This document shows, in pieces, positions 4,692 through 17,780 of a DNA stretch of 64,000 bases. The stretch's first letter is position 1; the number at the start of each line of letters is the position of its first letter. The DNA lies in NCBI RefSeq assembly GCF_030384885.1, contig NZ_CP128613.1, one strand, 5' to 3'. The notes beneath the pieces were generated by a model that worked only from the letters and a program-made list of their open reading frames with translations, ran no database searches and was not told the DNA's origin. The stretch is from Escherichia coli. GTDB taxonomy: Bacteria; Pseudomonadota; Gammaproteobacteria; Enterobacterales; Enterobacteriaceae. Both the position numbers and the translations under genes were made by a program.

Positions 4692-5156
4692 TTAAGCAGC
4701 CGCGTTGGTGCGGTCAATGAGATCCAGGACTTCCTGCTCAGTACGGCAGGCGCGTAAACGGTCGAAATTCTCTTCATCTTCAAACAGGTTGACGATCTGC
4801 ATGATGCCCACTTCCTGATGCGTGTTGGCATCGACCGCCGCCATCGTGATGAGGATATCCACCGGGTCGTTATCTTCGTGGTTGAACTCCAGCGGCTTTT
4901 TCAGCGTCACCAGTGCAAAACCGGTTTTCTTAACGCCCTCTTCCGGGCGACCATGCGGCATTGCCAGGCCCGGTGCGAGCACAAAGTACGGGCCGTGTTG
5001 TTCAACCGCATCCAGAATCGCCTGGTAGTAACGCGGCTCTACCACATCTGCCGCCACCAGCAGGTCAACGCCGATTTTCACTGCGTCCTGCCATGTCTCA
5101 ACTTCAGCCTGCAGACGGATAGATTTATTCTCCGCCAGCGAATCACGTAATTTCAT
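4692..5156 (-). CDS. ulaC: Ascorbate-specific PTS enzyme IIA
   Basis: 154-aa ORF. Confidence 0.95.
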
Positions 5157-5165
5157 AGCGCGCCC

Positions 5166-5471
5166 TTACTTCACGTCCTGCGGGAAATGTTCTTTGATCA
5201 CTTCCAGCAGTTTCGGGCCAAAATCGGCAGGAGAGAGCATGTTGCGCACGCCAACCACGTATTTATTGCCGGTCACGGTTATTTCGCCCGCGATGTGCGT
5301 AGAAGCGATGATGATATCCGCGCCGCTCAACTCGCTTTTGTATTCACCAACCGCGCAGCTGTTTACCGTGTGGTCGATGTTCGACTGGGTTAAAAACTGG
5401 TCCACTTTCATTTTCATGATCATGGAACTGCCTTGTCCGTTACCACACACAGCCAGAATACGTACGGTCAT
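5166..5471 (-). CDS. ulaB: Ascorbate-specific PTS enzyme IIB
   Basis: 101 aa from [16 protein letters not shown]...; track ORF has 2 extra N-terminal codons. Confidence 0.93.
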
Positions 5472-5486
5472 AATCAAAACTCCTTA

Positions 5487-7238
<1,752 letters not shown>

Positions 7239-8303
7239 ATGAGTAAAGTGAAAAGTATCACCCGTGAATCCTGGATCCTGAGCACTTTCCCGGAGTGGGG
7301 TAGCTGGTTGAATGAAGAAATTGAACAAGAACAGGTAGCTCCTGGCACATTCGCGATGTGGTGGCTAGGCTGCACCGGGATCTGGCTGAAATCTGAAGGA
7401 GGCACCAACGTTTGCGTCGATTTCTGGTGTGGTACTGGCAAACAAAGTCACGGTAACCCACTAATGAAACAGGGTCACCAGATGCAGCGCATGGCTGGCG
7501 TGAAAAAACTGCAACCGAACCTGCGTACCACCCCATTTGTTCTTGATCCGTTTGCGATTCGCCAGATCGACGCGGTACTGGCAACTCACGATCACAACGA
7601 TCATATCGACGTCAACGTCGCTGCTGCCGTGATGCAGAACTGCGCTGATGACGTGCCATTTATCGGGCCGAAAACCTGCGTGGATTTGTGGATTGGCTGG
7701 GGTGTGCCGAAAGAACGTTGCATCGTGGTCAAACCGGGCGATGTCGTTAAAGTGAAAGACATTGAAATTCATGCCCTTGACGCGTTTGACCGTACTGCAC
7801 TGATCACTTTGCCTGCCGATCAAAAAGCGGCTGGCGTACTGCCAGACGGCATGGACGATCGCGCGGTAAACTACCTGTTCAAAACGCCGGGCGGTACCCT
7901 GTATCACAGTGGCGATTCCCACTACTCTAACTACTATGCGAAGCACGGTAACGAGCATCAGATCGACGTGGCATTAGGTTCATACGGTGAAAACCCACGT
8001 GGTATCACCGACAAAATGACCAGTGCTGATATCCTGCGTATGGCAGAAGCGCTGAATACAAAAGTGGTTATCCCGTTCCACCACGACATCTGGTCAAACT
8101 TCCAGGCCGATCCGCAAGAGATCCGCGTACTGTGGGAGATGAAAAAAGATCGCCTGAAGTATGGCTTCAAGCCGTTTATCTGGCAGGTCGGTGGCAAATT
8201 TACCTGGCCGCTGGATAAAGACAATTTCGAGTACCACTATCCACGTGGTTTTGACGATTGCTTCACCATTGAACCGGATCTGCCGTTCAAGTCGTTCCTG
8301 TAA
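7239..8303 (+). CDS. ulaG: L-ascorbate-6-phosphate lactonase (metallo-beta-lactamase fold)
   Basis: 354 aa from [12 protein letters not shown]...; HxHxDH motif (ATHDHNDH). Confidence 0.95.
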
Positions 8304-8410
8304 TCTGTCGTTTATACCGGATGGCGTGGAGAAGTTCGCGCTATCCGGCGTAGTATTTCCTGGCTATTTCAAATATCATCTAAAAAAATCAAATTTTATC
8401 GGAATAGCTC

Positions 8411-9166
8411 ATGACTGAAGCACAAAGACATCAAATTCTCCTGGAAATGCTCGCACAATTGGGCTTTGTGACCGTTGAGAAAGTCGTTGAGCGTCTGGGA
8501 ATTTCGCCTGCTACCGCTCGACGCGATATCAATAAACTTGACGAAAGCGGCAAACTGAAAAAAGTGCGCAATGGCGCAGAAGCCATTACCCAGCAGCGCC
8601 CACGCTGGACGCCGATGAATCTGCATCAGGCGCAGAACCATGATGAAAAAGTACGTATCGCTAAAGCAGCCTCGCAGCTGGTTAATCCGGGCGAAAGCGT
8701 CGTCATCAACTGCGGTTCCACCGCGTTTCTGCTTGGGCGGGAAATGTGTGGCAAGCCAGTGCAAATCATTACTAATTATCTACCGCTGGCGAATTACCTG
8801 ATCGATCAGGAGCATGACAGCGTGATTATCATGGGCGGCCAATACAACAAAAGCCAGTCCATCACCTTAAGTCCACAGGGCAGCGAAAACAGTCTCTATG
8901 CCGGGCACTGGATGTTTACCAGCGGCAAAGGACTGACCGCAGAAGGGTTGTATAAAACCGATATGCTGACGGCAATGGCAGAGCAGAAGATGTTGAGCGT
9001 GGTAGGGAAACTGGTGGTACTGGTTGATAGCAGTAAGATCGGCGAACGTGCGGGGATGCTCTTTAGTCGTGCAGATCAAATCGATATGCTGATCACCGGC
9101 AAAAATGCTAACCCGGAAATCCTGCAACAACTGGAAGCGCAAGGGGTCAGCATTCTGCGTGTTTAA
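8411..9166 (+). CDS. ulaR: DeoR-family repressor of the ula regulon
   Basis: 251-aa ORF with N-terminal HTH and sugar-phosphate-binding domain. Confidence 0.95.
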
Positions 9167-9912
9167 AGATGCTGCTGGAAAAATGTCACGGCAGCATCTA
9201 ATGCCTCAGGCGTAATGCGGTGACGCACGCCTGGCTGCCATGAACAGGTTAGCAGTTTATCCCGTCCCGTCTCGATTAAGGCCTGCTGCAAACGTAGTGA
9301 TTCGTCGGCAGGCACGACGTCATCGTCAAGGCCATGCCACAGCAGTAGAGGTCTGTCACCAAGTTGTTCCAGATGGTTTGTCGCTTCCCACTCTGCCAGC
9401 GGCGCGACAATGTTATTGAATTCATTCTGCTGTGCTGCCGTTTCAGGTATCAGCGGTGGAAACAGTGAACGGGCGAGCGATGTAAAATAGCCCGATCCCA
9501 TCATGCTGGCGGTACATTTCACCGTGGGGTGGCGAGCGGTAATTCCCAGTGCCGTCATCGCGCCCATCGACGCGCCACCGACTGCCAGACGGTCAGCAAG
9601 CAGCCAGTTTTCTTCGGCTATTGCCGCACGTAAGGTAGTGAATTCCTGCATACTTTGTAGCAAAATTTGCCAAAATTGATATAACCGCCGCGCTGCGTCG
9701 CCCCTAAAACGGCTACCGTGATCGGGCGCATCCGGCATGATCACCCGCAAACCAGCCTGCGCCAGCGCAACGGCAAAATAGCTATACACCAGACTGGACG
9801 AAGTAAAGCCGTGATAAAAAATCACGCACGGTAACGGGGTATCTTTTTGCCCGACAGGATAAGCATGAAGAACGGGAATATCTGCCAGCACGCGCGAGTC
9901 TATTTCAATCAT
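9163..9912 (-). CDS. yjfP: Alpha/beta-hydrolase esterase
   Basis: 249-aa ORF; GGASMG nucleophile-elbow-like motif; convergent with ulaR, 4-nt overlap. Confidence 0.9.
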
Positions 9913-10093
9913 CTGTCTCTCCTTTTTGTCTGGTATGACATGAAGAAATCCTTAGCACAAGTTTCTGCTGGCGGTATTAGTTCATAATGTTGAGATGTGG
10001 GTTACGCTTTCGTCACGTTTTCATTCGAAAATCGCGTACCAGGTAACAATTCGGGAACATTCCCCCAAAGTTAAATTAATAAGGCACTACACT

Positions 10094-10423
10094 ATGGTTA
10101 GCAGGAAACGTAATAGCGTTATTTACCGGTTTGCCAGTTTATTATTGGTGTTGATGTTAAGTGCCTGTAGCGCACTGCAAGGTACGCCACAGCCAGCACC
10201 GCCAGTAACGGACCATCCGCAAGAGATTCGCCGCGACCAGACGCAAGGGTTACAGCGAATAGGTAGCGTAAGCACGATGGTTCGGGGTTCTCCGGATGAC
10301 GCATTAGCAGAAATCAGAGCGAAAGCTGTCGCTGCAAAAGCTGATTATTACGTTGTCGTCATGGTGGACGAAACCATCGTGACAGGACAGTGGTATTCAC
10401 AAGCTATTTTATACCGTAAATAA
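10094..10423 (+). CDS. bsmA: Biofilm/stress lipoprotein, DUF1471 family
   Basis: 109 aa from MVSRKRNSVIYRF...; lipobox LSAC; track ORF has a 33-codon upstream extension. Confidence 0.88.
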   Translation: MVSRKRNSVIYRFASLLLVLMLSACSALQGTPQPAPPVTDHPQEIRRDQTQGLQRIGSVSTMVRGSPDDALAEIRAKAVAAKADYYVVVMVDETIVTGQWYSQAILYRK

Positions 10424-10571
10424 ATCAGACAACTTATACAGCCAGCTTTACATTGCTTTGCGTCCCTATGCGTTTACCTGTGCACAATAAATTACCAGCT
10501 GGAAGCTCGGGCGTTTATTACCGCGATGGAATGCCCTGCAACATGTGGGGAAACGAAAAATGGAGCTGATG

Positions 10572-10847
10572 ATGAAACAATTACTTGCCTCACCCTCACT
10601 GCAATTAGTGACTTATCCTGCGAGCACCACGGCACAGTCTGCAGAATTCGCCAGTGCTGACTGCGTGACGGGCCTGAATGAAATAGGTCAGATCTCGGTT
10701 AGCAATATTTCAGGGGATCCGCAGGACGTGGAACGTATCGTGGCGTTAAAGGCCGATGAACAAGGTGCGTCATGGTACCGCATTATTACCATGTATGAAG
10801 ACCAGCAGCCTGATAACTGGCGTGTACAGGCGATACTGTATGCGTGA
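10572..10847 (+). CDS. yjfN: DUF1471 family small periplasmic protein
   Basis: 91 aa from MKQLLASPSLQL...; alternative upstream starts exist in frame (track ORF from 10545). Confidence 0.85.
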   Translation: MKQLLASPSLQLVTYPASTTAQSAEFASADCVTGLNEIGQISVSNISGDPQDVERIVALKADEQGASWYRIITMYEDQQPDNWRVQAILYA

Positions 10848-10849
10848 GT

Positions 10850-10905
10850 GTCATCCGCAGCAAATGAACAATGCCGGATGCGACACCTGTGCCTTATCCG
10901 GCCAA
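10850..10905. repeat. REP (repetitive extragenic palindromic) element
   Basis: gccggatgcgacac...gccttatccggcc imperfect palindrome, typical enterobacterial REP; between convergent yjfN and aidB. Confidence 0.6.
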
Positions 10906-10996
10906 CAGTTCCTGAAATTTCATTGTGTTAGTTGATAACACGTAATGCTGCTGTTGCCATTATAAGACGCGCTAGCATCACATCTGGCTGACTCGT

Positions 10997-12622
10997 TTAT
11001 AAACATACTCCCCCCGTCGCCCGCAGCAATAAATCATTCTGGATCTGCTCTGACAACCGCACGCCGCCGCGCGTATCAAACATCATCTGACACCACGCCT
11101 GCGCCATTGGCGGAGAGGCATATTTCAACATTTGCGCGCCGCAACCCAGCAGGAATAGCTGACGAGTAATCTCTCGCCCCATTTCTTCAGCTGGCTTACG
11201 CAGTTGCTGCTGCAAACGACGAACCGCGCGATCAAAATAGCGATCCTGCCCTTTCACTTCCATAAACGCTTCCGACAGTAAGTCGTATACACCCGCCTGC
11301 TTATTAAGAACGCGCAATACATCCAGGCACATAATATTGCCAGAACCTTCCCAGATGCTGTTCACCGGCATTTCCCTGTAAAGCCGCGGCAGCTCGCTCT
11401 CCTCGCAATAACCAATACCGCCCAGCACCTCCATCGCTTCGGCCACAAACGGCATACCACGTTTGCAGATAACCAATTTCGCCGCAGGCGTAAATAAACG
11501 CGCCCACAGGGCTTCTTTGGCATCGGCACGCCGGTCCCACGCTCGCGCAAGACGAAACAGCAACGCCGTTTGACCTTCAAGCTGAAGTGCCATGCGACTT
11601 AAGACATGACGCATAAGGGGTTGTTGGATCAATGGATTACCAAAAACATGGCGTTGATGGGCATGATAAATCGCCAGCGAAAATGCACGGCGCATCATGG
11701 CATGGCTACCCAGGGCGCAATCAAAACGCGTCATCCCACCCATTTTCAGGATCAGACGAACTCCTTCCCCTTCCTGCCCCAACAACCAGCCAATGGCATC
11801 CTGAAACTCCACTTCGCCGCTGGCGTTAGAGCGATTACCCAGCTTATCTTTCAGCCGCTCGAGGCGAATCGCGTTGCGTTGCCCGTCAGGCAAAAAGCGC
11901 GGCACAAAAAAGCAGGACAAACCGCCAGTGGTCTGCGCCAGTACCAGATGCGCATCGCTTTGTGGCACCGAGAAAAACCATTTATGCCCCACCAGCCGAT
12001 AAGAGCCATCGTCCAGACGCTCTGCGCGGGTAGTGTTGCTCATCACATCGGAACCGCCCTGCTTTTCCGTCATGCCCATGCCAATCAACAAACCGCGTTT
12101 TTGCCCACCTGGCAATAAGTGGGAATCGTAGCGATCGCTCAACAGCGGCGTGGTCCAGTCCTGAAACGGCGCGGGTAACATCTGTAACAGCAATGGCGTG
12201 GCGGCAAAGGTCATGGTTATCGGACATAACGACCCTGCCTCAACCTGTGCGTGCAACATAAAACGCGCCGCTCGCGCCACAAATGCGCCGGAGCGAGCGT
12301 CTTCTTCCCAGGCCAGATTGTGTACCCGATTGGTACATAACGCCTGCATCAGCAGGTGCCAGGCGGGGTGAAAACGCACATCGTCCAGACGGCGTCCTTG
12401 CGCATCGTAGCGCAATAATTCGGGCGGATTCACATTCGCCAGTCGCCCCAGTTCAAGGGATTCAGCCGTTCCTAACTGCTGACCAATACTGGCGAGAAAA
12501 TCGCTATCCCAGCCAGCACCTTCACGCGTTACCGCTTCGCAGAGCGCGCCATCAGACAGGTATAAGTTGCTGTTATTTAATGGTATAGGTTGATTAAAAA
12601 CGGTGTGAGTTTGCCAGTGCAC
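10997..12622 (-). CDS. aidB: Acyl-CoA dehydrogenase-family adaptive-response protein AidB
   Basis: 541 aa beginning at GTG (..VHWQTHTVFNQP); track ORF starts 6 codons further upstream. Confidence 0.93.
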   Translation of the reverse strand: MHWQTHTVFNQPIPLNNSNLYLSDGALCEAVTREGAGWDSDFLASIGQQLGTAESLELGRLANVNPPELLRYDAQGRRLDDVRFHPAWHLLMQALCTNRVHNLAWEEDARSGAFVARAARFMLHAQVEAGSLCPITMTFAATPLLLQMLPAPFQDWTTPLLSDRYDSHLLPGGQKRGLLIGMGMTEKQGGSDVMSNTTRAERLDDGSYRLVGHKWFFSVPQSDAHLVLAQTTGGLSCFFVPRFLPDGQRNAIRLERLKDKLGNRSNASGEVEFQDAIGWLLGQEGEGVRLILKMGGMTRFDCALGSHAMMRRAFSLAIYHAHQRHVFGNPLIQQPLMRHVLSRMALQLEGQTALLFRLARAWDRRADAKEALWARLFTPAAKLVICKRGMPFVAEAMEVLGGIGYCEESELPRLYREMPVNSIWEGSGNIMCLDVLRVLNKQAGVYDLLSEAFMEVKGQDRYFDRAVRRLQQQLRKPAEEMGREITRQLFLLGCGAQMLKYASPPMAQAWCQMMFDTRGGVRLSEQIQNDLLLRATGGVCL

Positions 12623-12705
12623 TGTGTCTCCCTCCATCAATGGCAGTCACCATTAGTATGGTCACTGCCACGGATTCCTGACAGAAAGAGATTGCTAAAA
12701 CATTC

Positions 12706-13869
12706 TTAGCCAGCAATATAATGCGGAACGAAACGTGAGGTGTCTTTGGTGATCAGCGTGTTATCTTCACGGATCCCCATTCCGCACGCTTCATCATCGA
12801 CAATCCAGCTACCAATGAGTGTGTAGCTATCGCCAAACCGTGGTAGAGGTTGAAATGCCTGGTAGATCATCGGTTCATCGGCGTAATCACCCTCAGCGTG
12901 GTCAACGACGTTATTCTGACCATCGAAAATGGTGACGTTACCGCCCTCGCGTGAGTAGATCGGTTTACGCACATAGCTTTCGCCAGCGGCAATCTGCGGT
13001 TTTTCGCCATCAAACCAGGATGCAAGTAGGTTAGGATGACCAGGAAAGAAGCGCCAAAGCAGCGGCATTAACCCTTTGTTGCTCAAGATACTTTTCCATA
13101 ACGGCTCCACCCATTGCTCGCGGCGCTTGCGCAGCAGCGGACCGTTATCGTCACGCATCATCCATTCCAGCGGATACAGCTTAAATGCACGCTGGATGAC
13201 ATTATCATCAAGATCGGTCAGTACACCGCCGACGCCCAAACCGAGATCTTCAATGTAGATAAACCGTGACTCCTGCCCAGCCTGCTGAGCGCAGTCCTGC
13301 AAGTACAGCACAGTACTCCTGTCTTCGTCGGTATCCTGACAACAGCAGAAATAAAACGGTTCCCGACTGTAAAGCTCGCTAAAACGCGAAATCAGGCGTT
13401 CCTGAATGGCATTGTACTGATCGGCATCACGCGGAATAATGCCGCTACGCCGCGCATCTTCCAGCCACAGCCACTGGAAATAAGCCGATTCATACAACGA
13501 GGTTGGCGTATCGGCGTTGTACTCCAGCAGCTTCACCGGCGCATTGCCACACCAGGCAAAATCCATCCGACCATACAGCGAAGGATCGCGTGCGCGCCAG
13601 CTTTCAGCGATCACATCCCAGTACAGCGGTGGGATCGCCAGTTGCGTCAGGATCTCTTCGTCTTGAACCGCACGATCCACCACCTCAAGGCACATCTGAT
13701 GCAGTTCCGCAGTTGGTTTTTCGATCTGCTCTTCTATCTGACGCAGAGTAAAGCGGTAAGCCCGACTCTCATCCCAATAGATTTCATTGTCGATGATATG
13801 AAAGTCGAAACCGTTGTCGGCGGCGATCTGGTCCAGATCCCGTCGTACAGGAACGTTGTGTCTCAGCAT
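12706..13869 (-). CDS. yjfC: Glutathionylspermidine synthase-family (ATP-grasp) protein
   Basis: 387-aa ORF; last gene of yjfKLMC. Confidence 0.9.
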   Translation of the reverse strand: MLRHNVPVRRDLDQIAADNGFDFHIIDNEIYWDESRAYRFTLRQIEEQIEKPTAELHQMCLEVVDRAVQDEEILTQLAIPPLYWDVIAESWRARDPSLYGRMDFAWCGNAPVKLLEYNADTPTSLYESAYFQWLWLEDARRSGIIPRDADQYNAIQERLISRFSELYSREPFYFCCCQDTDEDRSTVLYLQDCAQQAGQESRFIYIEDLGLGVGGVLTDLDDNVIQRAFKLYPLEWMMRDDNGPLLRKRREQWVEPLWKSILSNKGLMPLLWRFFPGHPNLLASWFDGEKPQIAAGESYVRKPIYSREGGNVTIFDGQNNVVDHAEGDYADEPMIYQAFQPLPRFGDSYTLIGSWIVDDEACGMGIREDNTLITKDTSRFVPHYIAG

Positions 13870-13871
13870 GA

Positions 13872-14510
13872 TTAGCCTCCCCAGTGCCCACGGGCGCTGG
13901 AAGAACGACCATAGCCGCCGCGAGAAACAGTTGACGCTTTTCTGGTGGTAAAGCCGCCCGAGGAGTAAGACTCTTTTTTGCCAGAACCGGAGCGCCAGGA
14001 GTAATCACCGGAAGTATTGCGCCAGACGGGGCGGGAAGCAAATGAGGATCCACCGCTGTTATAAACGAACGGCTCATCGCGATCTTTACGAATAACCCGG
14101 CTTAATAAAAATCCAGAAATGACCGGGATCCAACTCTGTTCAACATTGTCGTAGTAGCAATTTTCGTACTTAGACTGACAATTCTGCTGAGTCATATTCT
14201 TCGGAACATCGGCATAAAATGCCGCTTTGGCATTGTTCCAGCCATGAGCACAGATATCTGAATTATTACCGTCATCAATACAATCCTGCACTGTCGAGTA
14301 AAACGTTCCGTCACCGTCGTTATCGACATCACCACTATCGCCACAACCTTTCAATACAAAAAAAGCTGCACCGCCCATTAGCGCCAACGTTAAGTATTTT
14401 TGTGCGTAGCGATTGCGTCGCGGCTCAAAAGGATTATTAGGTCTTCCAATGCGACTGATCGCTCCGTGACCAATTTTACTGTTATTTCTTGATTTGCGTT
14501 TTCTGGCCAT
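13872..14510 (-). CDS. yjfM: DUF1190 protein with Gly/Ser-rich C-terminal tail
   Basis: 212-aa ORF. Confidence 0.88.
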   Translation of the reverse strand: MARKRKSRNNSKIGHGAISRIGRPNNPFEPRRNRYAQKYLTLALMGGAAFFVLKGCGDSGDVDNDGDGTFYSTVQDCIDDGNNSDICAHGWNNAKAAFYADVPKNMTQQNCQSKYENCYYDNVEQSWIPVISGFLLSRVIRKDRDEPFVYNSGGSSFASRPVWRNTSGDYSWRSGSGKKESYSSGGFTTRKASTVSRGGYGRSSSARGHWGG

Positions 14511-14519
14511 GATCGTCCA

Positions 14520-14918
14520 TTACCATGTCATACAAGCTGCGTTAAAAATACCGCCAGCCAGCGCGGCGGTTCCCATAAACATTCCTGCTGCGGTATTGTG
14601 ATTAATAATTTTTTCGCTTAATGCTGGCATATAAAGTCTGACGCCAGCAAAAACGAGTAACTGAATCACCAGTGCGATCCCGCCCCAGGCAAAATAATCC
14701 GGAATACTCACCGCATTGATTGCCGCACTAGATAATGGGATCACGTAACCCAACAATGTACCACTGAACGCCAGTGCCGCCGCGGTATTATTGTTTTTAA
14801 TTAACTGCCATTCGTTGTGTGGTGTAATTTTGGAGTAGATAAACAGAAAAATAATCACCATAGCCACGCCAATAAAAAAATAGGCGCTAAAGGCAAGAAG
14901 TGAATCCAGTATATGCAT
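14520..14918 (-). CDS. yjfL: DUF350 inner-membrane protein
   Basis: 132-aa hydrophobic ORF. Confidence 0.88.
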   Translation of the reverse strand: MHILDSLLAFSAYFFIGVAMVIIFLFIYSKITPHNEWQLIKNNNTAAALAFSGTLLGYVIPLSSAAINAVSIPDYFAWGGIALVIQLLVFAGVRLYMPALSEKIINHNTAAGMFMGTAALAGGIFNAACMTW

Positions 14919-14935
14919 CGTAAACGTCCTTGTAA

Positions 14936-15595
14936 TTAACCAATAATATGAAGTGATGTCAGTGGGATATCAACACCCAGTGCGCGCGAAAATAACCACT
15001 CCGGCTCGCCGAGATCGTTAAAAGATTCCTCACCATTTAACAGCAAATATTCACAGGTATCTTCGGTCACCTGCCGTTCATAGCCCATGGTAAAATTATG
15101 CACTTCCCATTTGGCGTGGTTTTGATTTTCAACTTTTTCCAGCATATAGACGGGTTCGATATTTCCCGGTTCTTCACTGTTAAAAAATCGCTGCCAGCGT
15201 TTTTCCTGCCAGTTTAATGTCATTGCCCCCATCGCTTTGGCGTTGATCGCTTCGCGCCAGTGGCTCTCTTTGCTGATACCGTAGCTCTCTTCATAGACAA
15301 AGAGCTTTATATCATCAATGTCATCAATATCTTCGCCGCCGGTGGTATTGATTTGCAGAAATTCATCGCCCGAAGTGTAGTAGCGGAAAATCTGACTACC
15401 GCCGCCCAGATCGATGTGGCTGACAGCGGCTACCGTAAATTCTTCACCCGGCAGCGCAATCAGCAATTCATCTTCCAGCAAACGAAACGCTAACGTGTCG
15501 AGCGTAAAGCCGCTATTGAGATGAAGTCCCAGTGGGCCACGTGCGATTGCAGGTTTATCATCCTTACCAAACAGACGCTTGAAAAAACTTGTCAT
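14936..15595 (-). CDS. yjfK: DUF2491 protein
   Basis: 219-aa ORF; start codon overlaps stop of the upstream RCK-like ORF (ATGA). Confidence 0.9.
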   Translation of the reverse strand: MTSFFKRLFGKDDKPAIARGPLGLHLNSGFTLDTLAFRLLEDELLIALPGEEFTVAAVSHIDLGGGSQIFRYYTSGDEFLQINTTGGEDIDDIDDIKLFVYEESYGISKESHWREAINAKAMGAMTLNWQEKRWQRFFNSEEPGNIEPVYMLEKVENQNHAKWEVHNFTMGYERQVTEDTCEYLLLNGEESFNDLGEPEWLFSRALGVDIPLTSLHIIG

Positions 15596-16347
15596 ATGCT
15601 TCCCTCAATGTCCTGCCATGCCACTTCTTCAGCCAAAATACGGTTATTGCCAATAAGATGCAGCCACATACCGCCTTTAACTTCCGTTGCAATGACTGGA
15701 TTCAGTTCCATTCCCCTACCATTTTTACAACTGCTTATTCCCAGGACGGTGGCATCATGATGAAGTTTCATATAATGCATCAATGCGCCATAACGCATTG
15801 AGGTAACCCGTTCAGGAATCGGTAAAACAAACCCCGTATCCCCCAGCATTGGATTCATAATCGATGCCACTGATTGAGATGAACCGGGATCTTGTATTGA
15901 ACGGGAAAGTTGTTCTGCTGAAATATTTCGCACTATTTCAATACGTTGACAATGAACCTCTAATAAACGAGCGTAGCGTTCATCTTCCAGATAAGCGACG
16001 ATATGGCATCTTTCAGGAATAAAATCCGCCAGGGATAGTGCGGTCGTGAACGTCTGCTCATCTGTTTGCGAAAAGATGATGACACTTTGGCAATTTGCCA
16101 GTCCCATGCGGGTATGTTCATGCGGATCATTAAAATTACTAATACGAATGAAATCGACCCAATTATTTCCAGGCATCGGATGTTGAATATCATCCCGCTC
16201 ACACAAAAGTACCCGGCCAAATGCTCTTCGGGAATCAAACAACAATAATGAAATCATCTTTTCAGTCTGATGCCCGCGCCATCCAATGACCAGCATATGG
16301 TTGCGCAAATTGCTGTAGTCGCCCATTCCCGTCATTCCTTTCGCCAA
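15592..16347 (-). CDS. RCK/TrkA-N-like cytoplasmic regulatory domain protein, apparent C-terminal half of a Kch/MthK-type K+ channel; start ambiguous (TTG at 16347, ATG at 16335 or 16326)
   Basis: N-terminus HMLVIGWRGHQTEKMISLL fits the Rossmann beta1-Gly-loop-alphaA pattern of RCK/CASTOR-type domains; ORF is in the same frame as the pore ORF, 2 codons after its TAA. AAGGA lies 9 nt before the ATG at 16326. Not a gene I recall from K-12. Confidence 0.55.
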   Translation of the reverse strand: MAKGMTGMGDYSNLRNHMLVIGWRGHQTEKMISLLLFDSRRAFGRVLLCERDDIQHPMPGNNWVDFIRISNFNDPHEHTRMGLANCQSVIIFSQTDEQTFTTALSLADFIPERCHIVAYLEDERYARLLEVHCQRIEIVRNISAEQLSRSIQDPGSSQSVASIMNPMLGDTGFVLPIPERVTSMRYGALMHYMKLHHDATVLGISSCKNGRGMELNPVIATEVKGGMWLHLIGNNRILAEEVAWQDIEGSI

Positions 16348-16353
16348 TATGTC

Positions 16354-16662
16354 TTACACTAATGCAATGACTTTTCCCATTAAAGCGCCAAATAAACCAA
16401 CACTCACAGGAATCTGCCAGAGCGCTGTGAACAGACGTCCCCCCACCGTTTGGGGTGTGATATCACCAAACCCCAGCGTTGATCCCACAACCGAGCAGTA
16501 ATAAATAAAATTACTAAGTTGTCCTACCAACGCCTCTTCATGCAACGCAGTTAACACCAGATAACAAAACAGATACTGTCCTGTAAATAATCCAGTCAAT
16601 GCCGGCCAGGTAAGCCTGGAAAGGTGACGTCGGCAGGTTTTAATGATCCATGAGAAGAACAT
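16354..16662 (-). CDS. Two-TM K+-channel-like pore subunit (TM1, pore helix, TLGFGD filter, TM2), apparent N-terminal half of an interrupted channel gene
   Basis: 102-aa ORF: TM1 PALTGLFTGQYLFCYLVLTAL, pore helix and filter NFIYYCSVVGSTLGFGDITP, TM2 GGRLFTALWQIPVSVGLFGALMGKVIALV; ends at TAA directly after TM2. ATG overlaps yjfJ stop by 1 nt. Confidence 0.6.
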   Translation of the reverse strand: MFFSWIIKTCRRHLSRLTWPALTGLFTGQYLFCYLVLTALHEEALVGQLSNFIYYCSVVGSTLGFGDITPQTVGGRLFTALWQIPVSVGLFGALMGKVIALV

Positions 16663-17360
16663 TACTCGCCCTGTTGGCGTTGCAGTCTTGCTAATACATC
16701 CTGGGCGCTACTTTTGTTGCTACCGCCAATTCCGGCTTCCGCCAGTTTTTCATCAAGATCGCGACCATCTGCCACTTTTTCCAGCTGTACGGCAGCATCC
16801 AGGCGAGCTTGACGTTCGGCCTGACGCGTTTGCAGACGCTTTAAGGATTCTGCCGCTGTCGAAACGCTGGAAGATGCGCCAACAGTAGAGGTCGTTACGG
16901 CCTGTTGTGCACGCTGCATGGCTTCAGTAGCTTTAACGACTTCCATTTGTTGCTCAAACTGAGCGATACGCTGCGCTGTCGCTGTAACTGCTTTTTCCAC
17001 GCCATCACGAGAGACTTCCAGATTCGACAACACTTGCTCTTCAGCGGTAATAAGATTCTCAAGGCGCGCGATTTCTTCAGCAACTTCGTTAATCAACGAC
17101 GGATTAACGTTCTTGCTTAACGCTTCCAGCGCACGAGCTTCCAGACTGGCTTTGCGCTCACGTAAATCTTTCAGCTTATCGTGACTTAATTTCACCCGCG
17201 CCAGCAGATCAACGCGAGATTTTCCGGCTTTATCGAGTTCAGCTTTAGCGTCACGAATATGCTGTTCCAGCATGCGCACACCCTGGGTTTCTTCAATGGA
17301 TTCTTCCGCCTGAGAGATAAACGATTTCCCCAGCGTAAATAAACTTTTTAAAATTCCCAT
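16662..17360 (-). CDS. yjfJ: PspA/IM30-family coiled-coil protein
   Basis: 232-aa ORF MGILKSLFTLGKSFISQAEE..., PspA-like. Confidence 0.92.
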   Translation of the reverse strand: MGILKSLFTLGKSFISQAEESIEETQGVRMLEQHIRDAKAELDKAGKSRVDLLARVKLSHDKLKDLRERKASLEARALEALSKNVNPSLINEVAEEIARLENLITAEEQVLSNLEVSRDGVEKAVTATAQRIAQFEQQMEVVKATEAMQRAQQAVTTSTVGASSSVSTAAESLKRLQTRQAERQARLDAAVQLEKVADGRDLDEKLAEAGIGGSNKSSAQDVLARLQRQQGE

Positions 17361-17378
17361 AAATACCTGTCCTTGTAA

Positions 17379-17780
17379 TTAGTGTGAATATTCTTCTGTA
17401 ATTTCAGCAAGATCCAAAGCGTTATCTACCAGCGTGGTTATTTCCAGCAGGATATCTTCAAGAGAAGATTTAAGCGATAACGCCCCGAAAACAATGTAAT
17501 ACTCTTCCTGTTGCACGCTGGAGATCCCTACCGATGACAACGGCATCATCTTCTGATTTCTTAATAAGAAGGTATTAAATTCATCTGGATTGCAGATACT
17601 ACTTACCGGACAAATAAAGGTTTCGATAATCATTTGGCGGGAAGTAAAAAGAATATTGATTTGCAAATCGCCATAATCATTCATTTTAATAATTAATGCG
17701 TTTTCATTATTTGTTATATCAATATTTTGTTCAGGTATAGTTTGCAGCGCCGTCGCCAGCGCCAACGGATTCCATGTCAT
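17379..17780 (-). CDS. yjfI: DUF2170 protein
   Basis: 133-aa ORF. Confidence 0.9.
   Translation of the reverse strand: MTWNPLALATALQTIPEQNIDITNNENALIIKMNDYGDLQINILFTSRQMIIETFICPVSSICNPDEFNTFLLRNQKMMPLSSVGISSVQQEEYYIVFGALSLKSSLEDILLEITTLVDNALDLAEITEEYSH

Follow-up and report, generated by a model that had tools for sequence, protein, structure and literature searches.

Does the stretch between yjfJ and yjfK on contig NZ_CP128613.1 of Escherichia coli (assembly GCF_030384885.1) hold a two-gene potassium channel module that entered a PspA/IM30-family cluster, or does it hold something simpler? We analysed a window of 64,000 nucleotides of this contig. Unless another accession is named, the coordinates below are positions in this window, and all the yjf genes and the channel gene lie on the minus strand. 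A preliminary description, made from the letters of the window, had read two neighbouring open reading frames (ORFs) as separate "pore" and "RCK" genes, co-transcribed and translationally coupled with yjfJ and yjfKLMC. It turned out that the window very probably carries one MthK-like channel gene, an old member of the yjf operon that was lost by most E. coli and that is broken here by a single-base stop.

A single channel gene interrupted by a nonsense codon

The channel gene occupies 16662-15592 (1071 nt, 356 codons if intact) and would encode a pore of two transmembrane (TM) helices followed by one RCK domain; the window carries a nonsense allele of it. The "pore ORF" (16662-16357, with its stop ending at 16354) corresponds to channel codons 1-102 and contains the two TM helices, the pore helix and the selectivity filter. 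The "RCK ORF" (16326-15592) corresponds to channel codons 113-356, which gives 244 aa from the ATG at 16326-16324, and appears in the ORF listing as 251 aa (16347-15592) when counted from a TTG. Both ORFs are in the same reading frame, together span the 1071 nt and are parted only by an in-frame TAA at 16356-16354, where channel codon 103 has changed from CAA (Gln) to TAA.

Among 5426 complete E. coli genomes, the best match to the window locus is NZ_CP027579.1 (E. coli 2013C-4282), in which the same 1071 nt form a single 356-aa "potassium channel family protein" (WP_000466338.1). The window aligns to 3009999-3073998 of this genome with about 4 differences in 64 kb, namely a synonymous AAT/AAC difference in ulaG (8225), the nonsense difference (16356), an A7/A8 run upstream of blc (50314) and one more single-nucleotide polymorphism downstream of 50330. 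Only one base differs within the channel gene: position 16356 is A on the plus strand of the window and G in NZ_CP027579.1, a C-to-T change on the coding strand. With so few differences from this sister genome, the stop is very recent, and the window comes from a sister isolate or from a second assembly of strain 2013C-4282.

The replaced residue, Gln103, is near-invariant among 25 orthologs. All of the complete E. coli genomes that carry the gene (18 of 18) annotate it under one product name, "potassium channel family protein", and the orthologs at 11 other loci are uninterrupted with 355-358 codons. A gene finder predicted the identical split into 102-aa and 244-aa products in public assemblies from at least four sequencing runs, each time in the yjf context. 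The shared frame and the single-base difference from the intact gene of NZ_CP027579.1 do not bear out a module of two genes, so that this part of the preliminary description has to be given up.

Judging from the sequence, the full-length channel cannot be made in the window strain, and the window copy is most likely inactive. The most that the strain could produce is a 102-aa pore fragment and, after re-initiation at Met113, a free RCK domain. The stop also interrupts the predicted coupling of the channel to yjfK, about 760 nt upstream of yjfK.

Another damaged copy was seen in a Salmonella-type protein from NCBI (P0033, 207 aa), in which the last 87 or so channel residues are fused in frame to YjfK and the frame is lost after about 55 YjfK residues. 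This is another decayed channel-yjfK junction, and channel decay is therefore not unique to the window strain.

Similarity of the channel to MthK

The pore ORF matches Ion_trans_2 (PF07885) over residues 37-100 with an E-value of 5.7e-11, and all the orthologs have precomputed PF07885 matches. The selectivity filter reads T62-L-G64-F-G66-D67; across 115 homologs, G64, G66 and D67 never vary, and the conservation of T62 is at least 90%. For the C-terminal ORF alone, the match to TrkA_N is weak (E-value 0.022, residues 75-130), and the precomputed TrkA_N matches of the homologs are faint or weak too. Because this sequence match is weak, the RCK identity is taken from a structure model of the full-length protein.

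The AlphaFold2 model of the intact channel was built on a 115-sequence alignment and has a mean predicted local distance difference test score of 95.8, with helices at residues 2-39 and 73-111, a pore helix at 49-61 and alternating beta-alpha elements from residue 122. When the model was searched by Foldseek, the top PDB matches were full-length MthK (E-value 2.7e-16, target-normalised TM-score 0.66-0.75), and the next were Slo1 gating-ring channels and MthK RCK crystals. The RCK part of the model has a Rossmann-like fold with a C-terminal subdomain. It matched MthK RCK crystals with target-normalised TM-scores of 0.72-0.76, among them 2aef_B and 4l75_B with 0.73-0.76. In phmmer, the full-length channel matched MthK with an E-value of 1.4e-7 over residues 6-300 (MthK residues 4-285). 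These matches identify the product of the intact gene as a channel of the MthK type, in which one polypeptide holds the 2TM pore and, C-terminal to it, a single RCK.

MthK of Methanothermobacter thermautotrophicus, a Ca2+-gated channel (PDB 1LNQ, 6U68, 8DJB), likewise combines a 2TM pore with one RCK per subunit. The E. coli channel has 356 aa and MthK 336 aa, and their identity is only about 17%. Neither RCK has the GxGxxG dinucleotide motif, the corresponding residues being GWRGHQ in the channel and GWSEST in MthK, and the filter is TLGFGD in the channel versus TVGYGD in MthK. The LEDERY motif of the channel aligns with E210-A-E212-R-Y of MthK and its E226 and E228 are conserved, but the third Ca2+ ligand of MthK, D184, aligns with Phe. 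The MthK Ca2+ site (D184, E210, E212) is therefore not complete in the channel, and Ca2+ gating cannot be assumed because the D184 equivalent is Phe. The two also differ in genomic context, for the channel sits in a PspA/polyamine operon that is unrelated to the surroundings of MthK.

Kch (PRK10537), the second K+ channel of E. coli that bears an RCK, is locally similar in its pore and RCK regions. It has six TM helices and an RCK, lies elsewhere in the genome and is not an ortholog; the channel scores 34 bits against the 425-bit cutoff of PRK10537. In NCBIfam there is no family-level model for the channel, YjfJ, YjfK or YjfL, and the search gave sub-threshold matches only.

Conservation of the channel in Enterobacteriaceae

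To follow the gene beyond E. coli, contigs of one genome per bacterial species were scanned with motifs specific to the enterobacterial subfamily, and the result is not a measure of how often yjf clusters are channel-less. Full-length relatives were found in 10 Enterobacteriaceae representatives (Escherichia, 1; Citrobacter, 3; C. sedlakii; "Serratia" microhaemolytica; Enterobacter, 1; Atlantibacter, 2; Buttiauxella, 1), and nine Nitrosomonas matches were set aside as short and pore-only. All 10 representatives have the channel between yjfJ and yjfK in the complete row yjfI-yjfJ-channel-yjfK-yjfL-yjfM-yjfC, and the Salmonella enterica ortholog (a cluster of 1960 sequences) lies at the same position. 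Altogether, the gene order is common to 12 loci from 7 genera (Escherichia, Citrobacter, Salmonella, Enterobacter, Atlantibacter, Buttiauxella and "Serratia" microhaemolytica).

The overlapping junctions had been described correctly for the window. The yjfJ stop and the channel ATG have one base in common (TAATG at 16664-16660), and the channel stop (15594-15592) overlaps the yjfK ATG (15595-15593) as ATGA at 15595-15592. The TAATG overlap is kept in 11 of the 12 loci and the ATGA overlap in 8. The shared gene order and the conserved overlaps confirm that the channel belongs to the yjfJ/yjfKLMC cluster. The preliminary description had made this membership depend on co-occurrence beyond one strain, and such co-occurrence was found both in the 12 loci of 7 genera and in homologs about 30% identical.

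The divergence of the channel from its orthologs tracks that of the neighbouring genes: identity to Citrobacter is 82% for the channel, 80% for YjfK and 90% for YjfJ, and identity to Buttiauxella is 61%, 53% and 64%, respectively. The GC (guanine plus cytosine) content of the channel is 44.5%, compared with 37-52% for the yjf genes (37-50% from yjfI to yjfM) and 55-57% for the flanking rlmB and aidB. As the preliminary description had stated, there are no mobility genes around the channel locus in the gene annotation of the window and no flanking repeats beyond chance 10-17-mers; a search for direct or inverted repeats flanking the channel gene returned short chance matches only. Its idea of an insertion into the cluster that calls for a mechanism does not hold, as position and overlaps are conserved across genera. 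On the simplest reading of these comparisons, the common ancestor of these genera had the channel in its operon, and repeated losses followed.

Presence and absence within E. coli

The channel gene is present in 18 of the 5426 complete E. coli genomes, and in 5317 of them yjfJ and yjfK are adjacent without it. The yjfJ-yjfK spacer of K-12 (locus positions 15253-15302) is 50 nt long and folds into a hairpin of 10 bp (-18.6 kcal/mol, z -2.7) with a U-rich stretch behind it. Remnants of the channel were sought by blastn-short of this spacer against eight channel loci, which gave chance 8-9-mers only. The K-12 spacer bears no recognisable deletion scar from which the loss could be reconstructed.

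The 18 carriers have a divergent haplotype: in its flanks, identity to other E. coli is 90-95%, and the ula genes 8-10 kb away give the same range. This suggests either an old presence/absence polymorphism or a segment imported by homologous recombination. SCPM-O-B-8794, another channel-bearing Escherichia, was considered as a donor and rejected, being no closer to the window than K-12 is, with yjfI and yjfJ that are far more divergent (76-86%), and no donor was identified. The divergent haplotype, shared by roughly 18-20 genomes and set apart from about 5400 others, spans about 4900-17400 of the window, from yjfK to the ula genes; the genes hfq, miaA and purA, which lie further upstream, share 98.5-99.7% identity with K-12.

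Distant homologs and their genomic context

A profile search of 1.8 billion representative proteins found 179 relatives at E <= 1e-30, and we looked at the genomic context of 10 homologs that are about 25-36% identical to the E. coli channel. Two of them head a row of channel-DUF2491-DUF350-DUF1190-GSP_synth beside a divergently transcribed DUF2170-PspA pair. Behind one of them, in a locus that has no PspA (GCA_964648765.1, channel at 5001-6050), come TelA, DUF4178, DUF2617, an unannotated protein of 550 aa and DUF350, and another adjoins a spermine-synthase gene. The remaining 6 are in unrelated surroundings, one of them phage-like. Judged from these neighbourhoods, the operon linkage is recurrent and deep but not obligatory, with DUF350 and polyamine genes, rather than PspA alone, as the constant partners.

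A distant homolog on a contig of SRR29889425 (5001-6029) stands among about 17 short genes, all on one strand and without Pfam matches, so that the contig looks like a phage or mobile element.

Operon layout, with probable co-transcription and coupling

Upstream of the yjf operon, rlmB (18638-17907) is followed by an intrinsic-terminator-like hairpin (17892-17863), a 13-pair stem and then T9, which divides it from the operon; both are on the minus strand. The first operon gene is yjfI (17780-17379), a DUF2170 gene annotated by RefSeq as "YjfI family protein", whose orthologs have PF09938 and whose product has been assigned a CesT/Tir-like chaperone fold (PMC11237479). Next comes yjfJ (17360-16662, TAA stop at 16664-16662), placed in the PspA/IM30 family by its RefSeq annotation and by PF04012 in its orthologs. 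Behind the channel gene lie yjfK (15595-14936, DUF2491), yjfL (14918-14520, a DUF350 inner-membrane protein with four TM helices), yjfM (14510-13872, a DUF1190 lipoprotein-like protein) and yjfC (13869-12706), and the next gene past yjfC in the window is aidB. YjfC is an ATP-grasp, glutathionylspermidine (GSP)-synthase-like peptide-spermidine ligase, annotated in K-12 as "peptide--spermidine ligase YjfC"; the paper behind this annotation is reportedly that of Pederick et al. from 2023.

The promoter of yjfI has to fall within 17862-17781. In the 82 nt before yjfI, a promoter scan flagged nothing with the sigma-70 consensus, and inside coding regions it gave 6 hits, fewer than the 9.9 in shuffles; the scan is uninformative. 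We found no strong terminator-like site within the yjfJ-channel-yjfK stretch. In K-12, yjfIJKL form one expression module; heat-evolved strains have it turned on by a mutation in the promoter, 80 bp upstream of yjfI (PMC12492005), which speaks for a single promoter serving at least the beginning of the operon. From the gene anatomy and these expression data, the channel is probably co-transcribed with the yjf genes from a promoter upstream of yjfI, and we infer from the overlapping junctions that its translation is coupled to yjfJ and yjfK.

Just before the yjfL stop, another terminator-like hairpin (14550-14570, minus strand) has 7 pairs, 5 of them G-C, and is followed by ATTTTT. A partial terminator at the 3' end of yjfL could explain why the K-12 module comprises yjfIJKL without yjfM and yjfC.

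Alternative explanations

The linker between pore and RCK contains an AAAGGA 9 nt upstream of the Met113 ATG (16341-16324, minus strand), and Escherichia, Citrobacter, Salmonella and Enterobacter all keep this AAAGGA-ATG in their DNA (equivalent codons 108-113). The site aligns within 2-3 residues of Met107 of MthK, the natural internal start of the soluble RCK of MthK, and by analogy the channel family may also make a soluble RCK from an internal start at Met113. The ORFs of the window could then be seen as a functional two-part system, a pore-only subunit with a separately translated soluble RCK, comparable to the internal RCK of MthK or to KtrAB/TrkAH. It would suit this idea that the stop sits in the linker, 7-10 codons before Met110 and Met113, that the Shine-Dalgarno-like sequence before Met113 is conserved near the MthK Met107 position, and that the split allele persists in several sampled isolates. 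We nevertheless hold a two-part system to be quite unlikely. All the other copies examined (18 E. coli genomes and 11 loci of other species) are one uninterrupted ORF; the stop replaces a near-invariant Gln; the near identity of the sister genome makes it a very recent change and not a selected architecture; AAAGGA is largely a consequence of conserved Lys-Gly codons; and without a tethered RCK the gating ring is not covalently linked to the pore. If the stop were a sequencing or assembly error, the strain would have an intact channel, and the single-base difference from a near-identical finished genome is of the kind that such an error leaves, as is the homopolymer length change at the A7/A8 run, which is typical assembly noise. 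This is very unlikely, however, because the exact 102-aa and 244-aa products are called on contigs from different sequencing runs. It is also highly improbable that this E. coli lineage acquired the channel recently, by horizontal insertion into its yjf cluster. The small number of carriers among complete genomes and the short K-12 spacer, without similarity to the channel, would agree with such an event, but the position and the overlapping junctions are identical in Salmonella, Citrobacter, Enterobacter, Atlantibacter and Buttiauxella, the ortholog identity falls in step with that of the neighbours, the GC content fits the operon, the locus has no repeats or mobility genes, and deeply diverged homologs sit in the same type of cluster.

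Several points weigh against the reading of an old operon member that was lost by most E. coli and inactivated here. More than half of the sampled distant homologs are in unrelated contexts, so the channel family is not confined to the yjf operon. We infer the loss in most E. coli from the distribution of the gene, and the whole segment might instead have come from a divergent Escherichia lineage through homologous recombination, as the carriers share a divergent haplotype. Furthermore, the 102-aa pore fragment might still assemble with a free RCK, and the prediction of lost function would then be weaker.

Relation to published systems

The operon class to which this locus belongs, K+ channel included, was described by Ravi et al. 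in 2024 in mSystems as the "third group" (PMC11237479), and the authors propose that such systems tie membrane dynamics based on PspA to the polyamine state. The locus shares its components with this group: DUF2170/YjfI, a YjfJ-family PspA, a K+ channel with an intracellular ligand-sensing domain, DUF2491, DUF350, a DUF1190 lipoprotein and an ATP-grasp GSP-synthase-like ligase. In the window, yjfI is directly followed by yjfJ, and the channel, DUF2491, DUF350, DUF1190 and the ATP-grasp ligase stand in one row. Compared with the published group, the window channel has a premature stop, and K-12 and most other E. coli represent a channel-less form. Distant members of the group have a divergent DUF2170-PspA pair and a channel that heads a second row, whereas the Enterobacteriaceae have seven co-directional genes with overlapping junctions. 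The linkage of channel, PspA and polyamine genes in one operon has thus been known since 2024, and conceptually there is nothing new in it.

With the classical psp system (pspF-pspABCDE), the yjf cluster has a PspA/IM30-family member, YjfJ, in common. Unlike that system, it has no PspF, PspB or PspC; here YjfJ is accompanied by a CesT/Tir-like protein, by DUF proteins and a polyamine ligase and, on this haplotype, by the channel. PADLOC defence-system models gave no match to the operon proteins except YjfJ coiled-coil noise (E-value about 0.002), and a literature search pairing PspA with Ion_trans_2 gave no match.

Possible working and significance

In its intact form, the gene would be transcribed with yjfI and yjfJ, and its translation would be coupled upstream to yjfJ and downstream to yjfK. 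The product would be a tetrameric K+ channel, whose pore opens when a cytoplasmic ligand binds to the RCK gating ring, and the regulated K+ flux would accompany membrane repair by YjfJ and spermidine conjugation by YjfC. On the window allele, ribosomes would stop at codon 103 and the tethered channel would not be made. A restart at Met113 would yield free RCK and restore ribosome traffic into yjfK; without such a restart, polarity on yjfKLMC is possible.

As for the role of the channel, one may speculate that it adjusts K+ and membrane potential, with YjfJ at work on the membrane and YjfC conjugating spermidine. The role suggested in the preliminary description, adjustment of membrane potential in response to envelope stress, is likewise speculative. 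A more specific idea, which we regard as unlikely, is that the RCK senses a polyamine or the peptide-spermidine conjugate made by YjfC and so ties K+ flux to polyamine chemistry during membrane repair by the PspA/ESCRT-III-like YjfJ; a related one, held with the same reserve, is that a free RCK is naturally made from Met113, so that the split allele would keep partial function. Polyamine sensing is favoured by the acidic LEDERY/DEQ cluster at the MthK cation site, where one ligand is missing, and by the repeated linkage to GSP-synthase and spermine-synthase genes, and the free RCK is favoured by the conserved Shine-Dalgarno-ATG arrangement in the linker.

In conclusion, adjacent in-frame ORFs, like the two in the window, need to be checked against sister genomes before they are called a module. 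The yjf operon is an uncharacterised PspA-family system, for which we found one experimental lead, its upregulation in heat-adapted E. coli. For the contribution of the channel to this system, three states that occur naturally in E. coli, an intact channel (2013C-4282), a nonsense allele (the window) and a clean absence (K-12), provide ready genetic material.

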